Shown here piece by piece: positions 7,159 through 7,737 of a stretch of DNA of 8,338 nucleotides. This DNA is from a virus (Duplodnaviria; Heunggongvirae; Uroviricota; Caudoviricetes): IMG/VR virus record IMGVR_UViG_2671180846_000031. The stretch is one strand, 5' to 3'. Each line of letters opens with the position of its first letter. Within the stretch, counting starts at the first letter, position 1. The notes under the pieces were generated by a model, which saw only the letters and a list, made by a program, of their open reading frames with translations, had not been told where the DNA came from and searched no databases. A program made the position numbers and the translations under genes.

Positions 7159-7189
7159 ATCAGCCTCCGGTTCTCGCGTTCCCGGTAAG

Positions 7190-7222
7190 TTTAAAATAAA
7201 AATCCCGCGTTGTGGCGGGATT
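7190..7222 (-). terminator. Rho-independent terminator-like hairpin between gemA and the Mor/C gene
   Basis: Minus-strand RNA would read AAUCCCGC-CACAAC-GCGGGAUU followed by UUUAUUUUAA: an 8-bp GC-rich stem (plus 7201-7208 pairs with 7215-7222), a 6-nt loop, then a U-rich tract. It starts 6 nt after the gemA stop (TAA 7228-7230). Confidence 0.6.
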
Positions 7223-7227
7223 TGGAG

Positions 7228-7737
7228 TTAACGGGGAAGTGATTTTTCATACTGCCTGCAAACGGCGTCATACCCCATCAGCGTGCGTTCGGGCATTCCC
7301 ATCGCGGCCAGCATTTTGCGGCGGTGCCATCGCTTGAGACGCTCCAGCACATCTGAGGCCAGGGCGGGGTGTTGCTCCAGCCACTGCCAGTTTGCCACAC
7401 CTTCGCCGCCGTTCTGCGCGGCCGTCTGCGATTTCACCCAGCGGTTAAGGGCGGTTTCCGCACCATCAGAGATAAAGCCCTGCCGGTGCATCACCTTCCA
7501 GATGGCGCGAATTTTGGCGGTCACCGTACCCGGTTTTAAGGCCCGGTTAACCGGCTTCTGACGCACTTTAAAACCGCGTTTTTTGAAAACATCCAGCACG
7601 CGGGATAACTCATCCGGTGACATATCCCGGCAGCTGGTTTTGCCGGTAGCTGCCAGCAGCGCGGATGTATAAGTCTCATCATCCAGGGCAAGCTCGCGCT
7701 TTGCCACATGAATGGCGGATATCAGTTTTCCTCTCAT
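7228..7737 (-). CDS. gemA: GemA / Mu gp16-like protein (DUF1018-type)
   Basis: A 169-aa ORF. The N-terminal block (ISAIHVAKRELALDDETYTSALLAATGKTSCRDMSPDELSRVLDVFKKRGF) matches the gp16/GemA signature (..TGKTSC.DM...EL..VL..) that I recall from Mu-like prophages. Its ATG (7737..7735) overlaps the stop of the upstream ORF (ATGA). It lies directly upstream of Mor/C as in Mu (gemA-mor). Confidence 0.7.
   Translation of the reverse strand: MRGKLISAIHVAKRELALDDETYTSALLAATGKTSCRDMSPDELSRVLDVFKKRGFKVRQKPVNRALKPGTVTAKIRAIWKVMHRQGFISDGAETALNRWVKSQTAAQNGGEGVANWQWLEQHPALASDVLERLKRWHRRKMLAAMGMPERTLMGYDAVCRQYEKSLPR

Follow-up and report, generated by a model that had tools for sequence, protein, structure and literature searches.

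How does a Mu-like prophage express its only late activator gene when a terminator-like hairpin stands directly in front of it? The question arises in a stretch of viral DNA of 8,338 nucleotides (the window), a Mu-like E. coli O157 prophage of the Sp18 type whose genes lie on the minus strand. Sp18-type prophages are present in 231 of 5426 complete E. coli genomes (~4%), and a literature search found no paper on their transcription. Sp18 itself cannot be induced with mitomycin (PMC2669165). The textbook cascade of phage Mu has three steps, in which the early genes lead to Mor, Mor to C, and C to the late genes. An earlier note on this DNA had described the Mu layout accurately, with the early operon ending after mor and C being made from the Mor-dependent promoter Pm, and had proposed that in the window a single Mor/C homolog lies behind a terminator. 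From sequence features, their statistics and their patterns of conservation and loss, we infer termination, promoter activity and the identity of the activator, and we slightly favor a reading in which the spacer upstream of the activator gene combines an intrinsic terminator with an embedded promoter that lacks a -35 element.

The final gene of the early operon ahead of the hairpin is gemA, and the gene beyond the hairpin encodes a Mor/C-family protein (Table 1). This protein matches Pfam PF08765 across the whole domain (residues 34-140; 111 bits, cutoff 24.9), with the HTH near the C terminus. In BLASTP comparisons, it shows 39% identity to Mu C (105 bits) and 27% identity to Mu Mor (52 bits), and its recognition-helix region reads SETQIYTV where the Mu C counterpart reads SQPQIYQI. 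Judged by these comparisons, the Mor/C gene of the window is a predicted C-like late activator, nearer to C than to Mor. The annotation of CV261, a prophage of 100% identity, shows no other Mor/C gene. RefSeq likewise lists no second Mor/C gene for the prophage and no equivalents of gp18-20, and lys follows the activator gene.

Table 1 Features of the gemA-activator-lys region, in order of transcription
Feature	Position	Strand	Basis and remarks
gemA (gp16 family)	7228..7737	-	Pfam GemA 2.3e-30; phrog_286; RefSeq 'gp16 family protein'
gemA stop codon TAA	7230-7228	-	Sequence
Putative activator box CAAATCCCGCC	7214..7224	-	Hairpin left arm plus one flanking base on each side; inferred from sequence match
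Hairpin AAATCCCGC / CACAAC / GCGGGATTT	7200..7223	-	Predicted intrinsic terminator stem-loop
Hairpin left arm AAATCCCGC	7215-7223	-	
Hairpin loop CACAAC	7209-7214	-	
Hairpin right arm GCGGGATTT	7200-7208	-	
T run TTTTTATTTT	7193..7202	-	9/10 T; would be the terminator U tract; sequence, Mu late promoters and relatives
TATTTT, alternative candidate -10	7193..7198	-	23 nt from the box; closer than TAAACT to the 24-nt spacing in this phage's late promoters
TAAACT, candidate -10	7188..7193	-	Counterpart of TATACT/TATAAT in relatives; alignment
Shine-Dalgarno (SD) GGAGG	7164..7168	-	5 nt before the activator ATG at 7158; sequence
Mor/C-family activator gene	6733..7158	-	Pfam Mor 2.8e-32; phrog_532 'late transcriptional activator' 3e-45
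Candidate Plys	6693..6727	-	In the 71-nt activator-lys spacer; box CGCAAAGCCTGCC at 6715-6727; TACGCT at 6693-6698
Lysozyme gene, first late gene	6161..6661	-	Pfam Phage_lysozyme 6.3e-37

The whole gemA-activator spacer is 69 nt long. Its hairpin has nine perfect pairs, five of them G-C, and a 6-nt loop, with a predicted energy of -12.9 kcal/mol, comparable to the values for Mu t9.2 (-11.7 kcal/mol) and the Mu C terminator (-12.5 kcal/mol). The hairpin begins 4 nt past the gemA stop codon and the T run ends 24 nt before the SD, rather than the 6 nt and about 30 nt given in the earlier note. Immediately 3' of the stem segment GCGGG, T occupies nine of the 11 nucleotides of ATTTTTATTTT, so the U tract adjoins the stem. 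Under a strict criterion (a perfect stem of 8 bp or more, including five or more G-C pairs, then 8 or more T in 11 nt), this is the only such element on either strand of the window, and one was seen in only 1 of 300 dinucleotide shuffles; a looser terminator scan, unspecific by itself, returned 13 sites against 8.2 expected. The claim of a terminator-like hairpin and U tract between gemA and the sole Mor/C homolog is thus borne out. The stretch after the hairpin on the plus strand is GGAGTTAACGG, and the terminator would therefore be one-directional. The exact 9-mer AAATCCCGC recurs in the prophage within the terminase and tape measure coding sequences, in the candidate late promoter PI, and in another hairpin after a tail-region gene; the two copies inside coding sequences look like chance.

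Pairing is retained in 94.7% of cells in an alignment of 21 variants, and RNAalifold recovers the hairpin independently. Compensatory changes are limited to the outer pairs (three pairs, two sequences), with AAA/TTT replaced by CCC/GGG in lineage L083 and A:T by T:A in L044. The stem core TCCCGC/GCGGGA does not vary and is hence uninformative on selection for pairing, and one-sided changes, which are few, show no clear bias towards the right arm. An Rfam search of the whole window gave no family match. Taken together, these features suggest that the hairpin and T run are probably an intrinsic terminator that closes the early operon.

The earlier note had seen no room for a promoter in this spacer. 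This does not hold for Mor/C-type promoters, which do without a -35 hexamer. In Mu (AF083977), the 77-nt mor-gp18 spacer holds both a predicted terminator (9179-9200) and Pm (9163-9233), and the C-lys spacer holds a terminator and Plys within 94 nt. We take the terminator at 9179-9200, a TransTermHP prediction in the record, to be the experimentally known t9.2, and we take the Mu middle transcript to start at roughly 9.2 kb, which agrees with the GenBank features. A sigma-70 consensus scan found no promoter in the spacer of the window, where the best -35 is GCCACA (3/6). However, the same scan misses Mu Pm and Plys, both experimentally established, so its negative result is uninformative here. 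The two candidate -10 hexamers, TAAACT and TATTTT, each match the consensus at 4/6 positions, including T-12, A-11 and T-7. From TAAACT, the predicted start lies near 7181, giving a leader of ~23 nt.

The same hairpin core is found in enterobacterial relatives at 44-100% protein identity. Six enterobacterial lineages, whose activators share 44-55% identity with that of the window, have TATAAT or TATACT after the hairpin and T run, and the leader beyond has diverged. The same hairpin also borders inserted morons on both sides (L034, L016, L044, L086, L096 and L098). Every activator-adjacent copy of the window lineage keeps TTTTTATTTTAAACTT, and TAAACT is lost in the first copies of L034 and L016, which lie after gemA and before the moron. 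TATTTT is kept in first copies as well and is thus not discriminating. The comparative data favor an embedded promoter, with TAAACT as the most likely -10. The lineages do not count as independent observations, because the hairpin is a conserved cassette that may be exchanged horizontally. Searches for lineages at 60%-84% identity yielded little: an L083 protein query retrieved only itself, a metagenome scan gave sequences of the window and 84% types only, and a word-index protein search gave almost only relatives above 80%. The 84% group has a TGTAAT 13 nt past the end of TAAACT, absent in the window, from which a start would fall inside the SD.

The same comparisons bear on a simpler explanation, that the hairpin is a plain terminator acting as an attenuator. 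The spacer would then hold no promoter, and the activator would be made only by read-through from Pe, which would set the late delay. Canonical terminator features, the weakness of the -10 candidates in the window and the empty consensus scan accord with this, but that scan is blind to proven Mu promoters, and near-consensus TATAAT/TATACT directly after the T run would not be expected to persist in six lineages while the leader diverges. L083 (60% identity) also accords with the attenuator. Its hairpin is present, the T run is lost and no -10 stands at the same position, so upstream read-through must suffice; terminator and promoter functions appear to have been lost together, and read-through is probably the only route in some relatives such as this one. 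In MuM16-1 and HS6, the activator gene overlaps its upstream gene and would simply be co-transcribed. Conversely, L042/L088 and L098 have lost the hairpin and kept the T run and TATACT, and the retention of TAAACT only in activator-adjacent copies has no explanation in attenuation. In L034 and L023, the early operon is cut off from the activator gene by two serial hairpins and a gene on the opposite strand; serial terminators would nearly abolish read-through, so a local promoter is needed there. We consider attenuation alone unlikely.

If the spacer does contain a promoter, its hairpin may also supply an activator box. CAAATCCCGCC matches the activator box of the candidate late promoters PI (CAAAACCCGCC) and Plys (CAAAGCCTGCC) as well as the AATCCC core of the Mu C-type box, and the left arm agrees with the phage's own late-promoter box CAAAnCCyGCC at 11/11 positions. 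In candidate Plys, TACGCT begins 29 nt after the box start, and the same box and spacing recur in the prophage's own G-I spacer (L032 23361-23410), in L034 and in L035. In Plys, an AATCCC-like box precedes the -10 by 25 nt in all 10 of the non-window lineages that were examined; Mu Plys, PI and PP show this distance too, and Mu Pm one of 24 nt. In the activator spacer of the six lineages, the left-arm box lies 25-26 nt upstream of the -10, which reproduces the Plys geometry of the same phages within 1 nt; the background rate of such box placement is 1.4% of TAnnnT hexamers. In the window, the box is 28 nt from TAAACT and 23 nt from TATTTT, compared with 24 nt in its own late promoters, and a distance of 28 nt is a poor phase for a class-II-type activator.

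A two-block weight matrix, derived from Mu and distant relatives alone, was applied to the 43-kb prophage locus. On the gene strand it placed PI first and the activator spacer second; false positives on the other strand reach similar scores, and the ranking is suggestive only. The pattern CGCAAANCCNGCC, with up to two mismatches and a nearby TAnnnT, has four gene-strand matches, namely Plys, PI, the hairpin and one other. Many terminators have an A run ahead of a C-rich stem, and we estimate that AATCCC would arise by chance in this way in 2-10% of cases. A distance of ~25 nt between box and -10 also follows from hairpin size alone when the -10 abuts the U run. We consider positive autoregulation through the left-arm box possible but less likely than not.

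The full sites of the Mu activators have known forms. The Mor site is an inverted repeat of 5 bp around a G/C-rich spacer of 6 bp, centered at -43.5 (PMC4390567, PMC4287176), and the C site is a TTAT-N5-6-ATAA dyad, also centered at -43.5 (PMC12867686, PMC2582627). Placed on the Mu sequence, the published Mor site overlaps the t9.2 hairpin in its left arm and loop. Near -43.5 in the window, we found no 16-bp imperfect dyad: no left half-site is recognizable, and the sequence upstream of the hairpin varies between the window, L016 and L023. The hairpin dyad was also considered as a Mor/C site and rejected, with its center 18.5 nt from TAAACT or 13.5 nt from TATTTT, compared with ~31.5 nt in Mu late promoters. 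The center of the hairpin lies at about -30 relative to the predicted start, and only its left arm could act as a box.

An alternative that keeps both terminator and promoter makes the promoter independent of the C-like activator. It would be a weak constitutive sigma-70 promoter or respond to some other factor of phage or host, for example a repressor or an early protein, and the resemblance to the box would be coincidental. L042/L088 and L098 retain the -10 with no box at the right distance, which suggests that the promoter may not need one, and the consensus -10 hexamers of the relatives lessen the need for an activator. In the Pasteurellaceae relatives, the terminator stands ~100 nt upstream and an ordinary-looking TTTACC-N19-TATAAT promoter with no C-type box comes after it, and the 28-nt spacing in the window points the same way. 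Coincidence would nevertheless have to account for the 11/11 match to the phage's own late-promoter box, for Plys geometry in six lineages, and for a stem core that is invariant across activators 44-60% identical, which RNA pairing alone does not explain. A constitutive late activator would also be lethal in lysogens unless repressed, and no operator of a known repressor is evident. We judge this explanation unlikely.

It is very improbable that the perfect dyad ATCCCGC-N6-GCGGGAT is primarily a DNA operator for a dimeric repressor of the activator promoter, with the hairpin secondary. Both arms are invariant while loop and spacer are free, and the dyad center, about -28 to -30 from the predicted start, falls between -35 and -10, where repressors act; yet there is no candidate protein, the Pe/repressor region lacks the dyad and carries other repeats (ATATCCGC twice), the outer-stem changes are of the compensatory kind typical of RNA pairing, and copies stand at moron boundaries with no activator gene following. 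Least probable of all is a phage processive antiterminator of the lambda N/Q or put RNA kind, for which only the logic of a terminator ahead of an essential gene speaks, since no homolog appears among the window ORFs (Pfam) or in the prophage RefSeq annotation, no Rfam match is present in the window, the conserved -10 would be left unexplained, and we know of no processive antiterminator in Mu.

We return to the combined terminator and promoter. Read as RNA, the hairpin and U run would terminate the ~10-kb early operon, as the positional counterpart of Mu t9.2 placed before the activator gene rather than after it. Read as DNA, the same ~45 bp would carry a -35-less Mor/C-type promoter of the activator gene, in which the U run doubles as the T-rich stretch before the -10, as in Mu Plys and Pmom, and the left arm supplies an AATCCC-type box. 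The single C-like activator would first be made at a low level through terminator leakage or basal promoter activity, and then from the promoter in the spacer. With a functional box, the activator would stimulate its own gene, and positive feedback into the late program would replace the relay from Mor to C. The earlier note had offered three routes of expression. The comparative data support the embedded promoter with TAAACT, no evidence was found for antitermination, and read-through is probably still needed as a primer. Its label of a compact regulatory switch appears reasonable for such an arrangement.

The most novel form of this reading, that the same nucleotides serve as an RNA terminator stem and as a DNA box for the sole activator in a one-gene positive-feedback commitment switch, possibly triggered by the replication-loaded sliding clamp, is speculative, and we give it less than even weight. 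The sliding clamp was recently reported to be required by Mor/C proteins (PMC12867686). Dual constraint at the RNA and DNA levels would explain why the stem core is invariant although the activators are only 44-60% identical. A lethal late activator that activates itself would require very tight basal silence in lysogens.

Many other Mu-like prophages resemble the Sp18-type in having a single Mor/C activator. If our reading is correct, a two-step phage keeps both a delay and a sharp commitment to lysis, with the terminator shielding the lethal activator gene from early transcription until a hidden, possibly self-activated, promoter takes over. The element would then be a natural example of RNA-level and DNA-level codes overlapping in one 24-nt hairpin, and would account for the hairpin as an insertion hot spot for morons (accessory genes). 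If it is merely a leaky terminator, the finding is an ordinary one. The element supplies concrete coordinates for annotating promoters and terminators in Sp18-type prophages.

The proposed composite element is a compact variant of a design known from phage Mu. At t9.2-Pm, as in the window, the early operon ends in a short spacer (77 nt and 69 nt, respectively) that contains a hairpin of similar strength and a T run; the promoter, a candidate in the window, has no -35, and the leader is very short. A Mor/C-type box of A/T plus GC, TTAATCCGGC in Mu and the candidate AAATCCCGCC in the window, overlaps the hairpin ~24-28 nt upstream of the -10. The sequence anatomy of the window reproduces a predicted terminator hairpin overlapped by candidate promoter elements in one spacer, and in this respect the comparison with Mu proposed in the earlier note holds. 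It fails in position: the Mu element follows mor, so that Mor is made upstream of the terminator, and drives the middle operon (gp18-20, C), whereas the window element precedes the sole activator gene. Since the window has neither mor nor a middle operon, any dependence on an activator must be autogenous. The box also differs in placement, occupying the loop and right arm in Mu, with the T run directly next, but the left arm in the window, where the T run abuts the -10.

The C-dependent late promoters of Mu (Plys, PI, PP and Pmom) similarly lack a -35 and have a -10 of the TAnnnT type (CAAACT in Mu PI). Mu Plys (GATTTTTTAGACT) and Pmom (GTTTTTTAAGAT) have a T run close ahead of the -10, as the window does. 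Their (C)ATAAyCCC box places ATCCC so that it begins 25 nt ahead of the -10; the window shows only the right half and CCC of the C site, and the 15 bp between box and T run pair with the box as a hairpin in the window but not in the Mu late promoters. With generic Rho-independent terminators and moron boundaries, the element shares an A run, a GC-rich stem and a U run right after a stop codon, and its duplication as a cassette on either side of inserted accessory genes. It differs from generic terminators in a stem core that does not vary among phages with flanking genes only 44-60% identical, and in the conserved -10 fused to the U run. Finally, MuM16-1 (Shewanella), HS6 (Pseudoalteromonas), Pmp9 (Pasteurella) and Pasteurellaceae prophages have one Mor/C-family activator between the early and lysis genes, as here. 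The overlapping genes of MuM16-1 and HS6 leave neither a terminator nor a spacer, whereas the Pasteurellaceae relatives set their terminator apart from a separate sigma-70-like promoter and add a leader hairpin that sequesters the SD.

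The window belongs to an Sp18-type Mu-like prophage of Shiga-toxin-producing E. coli (8338 nt). E. coli CV261 matches positions 6600-8338 at 100% identity, and prophage Sp18 of O157:H7 Sakai matches positions 6600-7800 at 99.6%. Sp18 is reported to be apparently intact and non-mitomycin-inducible (PMC2669165). All genes in the window are carried by the minus strand. The annotated full prophage contains only one Mor/C-family gene, in agreement with the earlier note, which had placed a single homolog behind a terminator, and no equivalents of Mu gp18-20. Of the two Mu activators, the encoded protein resembles C more (39% identity, 105 bits) than Mor (27%, 52 bits), and its gene, like that of C in Mu, lies immediately before lys. 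Clamp-binding motifs of the Mor/MuC family were recently described as Qx[D/E][L/M]F and QPDLF (PMC12867686); matches are found near the activator N terminus (QMSMF; residues 1-9, window 7144-7158) and C terminus (QPPLF; residues 137-141, window 6736-6750). Elsewhere, the window contains three blocks of exactly 50 N (204-253, 503-552 and 1084-1133) and a 249-nt direct repeat (254-502 = 563-811, 97% identical) within the head-morphogenesis (F) gene. The repeat does not occur in L032, the reference prophage matching the window at 100%, and 181 nt of L032 (24979-25159) are absent from the window. Window 1-1133 has the look of deliberate masking or of an error in scaffolding or assembly, and not of biology. 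Between the F and G genes (L032 24052-24131), RefSeq places a 'tRNA-OTHER' on the opposite strand, as it does in the related loci L034 and L035; ARAGORN detects no tRNA there.

Features around the activator gene (window coordinates unless stated)
Feature	Position	Strand	Sequence or remark
Early genes	upstream of gemA	minus	
gemA	7737..7228	minus	
gemA-activator spacer		minus	69 nt
Hairpin	7223..7200	minus	AAATCCCGC-CACAAC-GCGGGATTT
T run	7202..7193	minus	completes TTTTTATTTT
Candidate -10	7193..7188	minus	TAAACT
SD	7168..7164	minus	GGAGG
Activator start codon	7158	minus	ATG
Mor/C-family gene (activator)	7158..6733	minus	
Activator-lys spacer		minus	71 nt
Candidate Plys	6693-6727	minus	CGCAAAGCCTGCC-N16-TACGCT; before lys
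Lysozyme	6661..6161	minus	
Spanins, TraR/DksA-like protein, DUF2730, gp27, terminase, portal	after lysozyme, in this order	minus	
Candidate PI	L032 23361-23410, outside the window	minus	CGCAAAACCCGCC-N16-TATGCT; before protease gene I

The spacer hairpin has an energy of -12.9 kcal/mol, compared with -11.7 and -12.5 for the Mu hairpins after mor and after C. A hairpin and T run of such quality occurs once in the window and in 1 of 300 dinucleotide shuffles, and no T run lies 3' of the hairpin on the opposite strand. By every sequence criterion, the element is a predicted intrinsic terminator. The earlier note had set it 6 nt after gemA and about 30 nt before the SD; the element is real, but the distances are 4 nt from the gemA stop and 24 nt from the U tract to the SD.

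That note also held that almost no room was left for a promoter, a premise that fails on comparison with Mu. Its observation is borne out, and its interpretation partly supported. The 77-nt Mu mor-gp18 spacer holds both a terminator and the Mor-dependent middle promoter, Pm. In the re-annotated Mu genome, the middle promoter feature, defined by experiment (9163-9233), encloses the predicted terminator (9179-9200) and is followed by the gp18 SD after only 2 nt. The Mu C-lys spacer (94 nt) likewise contains a terminator and the C-dependent Plys. Pm and the Mu late promoters have no -35 and need Mor or C on a 16-bp imperfect dyad centred at -43.5 (PMC4287176, PMC2582627, PMC4390567), the published Mor site being an inverted repeat of 5 bp around a G/C-rich spacer of 6 bp. 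Judging from this description and the Mu sequence, the site coincides in part with the terminator hairpin, namely with its left arm and loop. A consensus promoter scan, applied to Mu as a control, found the hairpin and missed both Pm and Plys; its silence in the window is thus no evidence against a promoter.

We gathered activator-upstream regions from viral contigs, species-representative genomes, metagenomes and E. coli genomes. The block AAATCCCGC-N6-GCGGGATTTTTATTTTAAACTT is kept in the window lineage and in a sister group at 83-88% identity, except for an A/G difference in the loop and a small number of single-base variants, while the leader between the block and the common SD (CCGGAGG) is unalignable between the two. 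Six more enterobacterial lineages (Edwardsiella, Kluyvera, Erwinia, gut isolates), with activators 44-55% identical to that of the window, have the same stem core, different loops and a T run, followed directly by a strong -10-like hexamer, e.g. GCGGGATTTTTTA-TATAAT or GCGGGATTTTTTG-TATACT. The window TAAACT most likely corresponds to TATACT, from which it differs by one substitution; the T run before it is 2 nt longer. In a comparison of 21 distinct hairpin variants, standard pairs fill 94.7% of pair cells, and RNAalifold independently recovered this helix, its covariation term being negligible; pairing therefore appears to be maintained. Little or no variation and no compensatory change is seen in the six core pairs, and the loop is free; compensatory changes come from two sequences and affect outer pairs only. 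The invariance of TCCCGC/GCGGGA among phages with 44-60% identical activators calls for a sequence-level explanation; a protein-binding box is one candidate, and a hairpin cassette exchanged horizontally more than once is another. As one cassette is common to all, the lineages are not independent. More distant single-activator phages differ: in MuM16-1 and HS6 the genes overlap without any spacer, and in Pasteurellaceae a terminator about 100 nt upstream precedes an ordinary-looking promoter. Pasteurellaceae loci (L036, L045, L047-L051, L100, L127) also have leader hairpins before the activator gene and the lysis gene with the SD in the 3' arm, e.g. CCCCTATTTAGATTAAATAAATAGGGGGTTATATG and CTCTTTAAA..TTAAAGGGAGTTTTTTATG, which suggests translational or attenuation control absent from the enterobacterial clade.

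Four patterns among natural variants speak for a promoter. L042/L088 and L098 have lost the hairpin and retained the T run and TATACT. In L034/L023, L016, L044, L086 and L096, an accessory gene is inserted between gemA and the activator gene with a hairpin on either side; in L034, L023 and L016 the activator-adjacent copy has TAAACT and the post-gemA copy does not. The L034/L023 insert is an opposite-strand gene, and early transcripts would have two serial terminators to cross before reaching the activator gene. Finally, L083 (60% identity) contains CCCATCCCGC-GTCA-GCGGGATGGG, in which three outer pairs are changed compensatorily, hence the missing T run; a -10 at the matching position is absent, and terminator and promoter seem to have been lost together. 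Separately, the inserts flanked by duplicated hairpins (L034 10575-10598 and 11225-11248; L044 about 896 and 1439; also L016, L023, L086, L096 and L098) are of at least three kinds: a 113-aa ORF on the opposite strand that has no PHROG hit, a 153-aa protein in forward orientation that looks secreted (phrog_15648), and a third one. Morons seem to have used the hairpin repeatedly as a recombination joint.

With sequences anchored on their -10 hexamers, the start of an AATCCC-like box lies 25 nt before the -10 in Mu Plys, PI and PP, and 24 nt before it in Pm; only 1.4% of background TAnnnT hexamers have such a box. It is also found, at the same distance, in the activator-lys spacer of 10/10 non-window lineages examined, and in six lineages the left hairpin arm upstream of the activator gene supplies it, 25-26 nt from the -10. 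The T run before the -10 in hairpin lineages has a likeness in Mu Plys (GATTTTTTAGACT) and Pmom. The candidate Plys and PI of the window's phage, both kept in L034 and L035, have a common box, CGCAAAnCCyGCC; a TAyGCT hexamer begins 29 nt from the first base of this box. The PI start would fall at or beside the annotated ATG of protease gene I, so that the mRNA would be leaderless or the start codon misannotated.

The left arm with its flanks, CAAATCCCGCC (7214-7224), fits CAAAnCCyGCC, the part common to the Plys/PI boxes, at every position. A search of the 43-kb prophage locus with the longer pattern CGCAAANCCNGCC (up to 2 mismatches, TAnnnT required nearby) gave four gene-strand matches, namely Plys, PI, the spacer hairpin and one other. 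A matrix built without sequences of the window's phage ranked PI first and the gemA-activator spacer second on the gene strand. The probability that a 69-nt spacer contains such a match is estimated at ~0.01, before correction for freedom in defining the pattern and for the habit of terminators to combine an A run with a C-rich arm. The element shares some but not all features of a Mor/C-dependent promoter. Box and TAAACT are 28 nt apart, whereas the late promoters of this phage have 24 nt; TATTTT, an alternative -10, fits at 23 nt from the box but is retained too in hairpin copies with no activator gene after them; no left half-site of the activator dyad is visible; and two hairpin-less variants keep the -10 without the box. 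Two further L032 sites were seen on the minus strand. At 5170-5215, just past the DUF6645 gene in the tail-fibre/accessory region, a second hairpin begins AAATCCCGCC (TCCCGCCGG-N11-CTGGCGGGA, without a T run). At about 41330-41365, upstream of a Ner-like gene, there is a tandem repeat of ATATCCGC (GATATCCGCACGAATATCCGCGCGGG) and, after it, CTTTTTAGAAT; the site bears a vague resemblance to the late box, at the wrong distance, and could be an operator of the Ner type that overlaps the early promoter.

We propose that early transcription from the early promoter Pe would cross gemA and mostly halt at the hairpin and U run. Conservation and loss patterns suggest that the same DNA forms a -35-less promoter with its -10 adjoining the U run, a predicted start near 7181 and a 23-nt leader with a good SD. 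This promoter would be of the Mu late type, and since the downstream gene encodes the only Mor/C protein available, leak-through or basal transcription could prime positive feedback. Such feedback of the activator on its own promoter is a tentative proposal that we consider less likely than not. The activator would next turn on Plys, PI and other late promoters. If true, the two-tier phage would gain the delay and sharpness that Mu obtains via its Mor-to-C relay, and autoregulation would account for the unusually invariant hairpin.

The searchable literature yielded neither a description of such an arrangement nor one of how Sp18-type prophages are transcribed. The Mu unit of Pm and the terminator after mor, known as t9.2, follows mor and drives the middle operon; the window element does neither, and is therefore not a strict member of this class. 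The likeness to Mu would lie in the way the early operon ends, with a terminator superimposed on an activator-type promoter.
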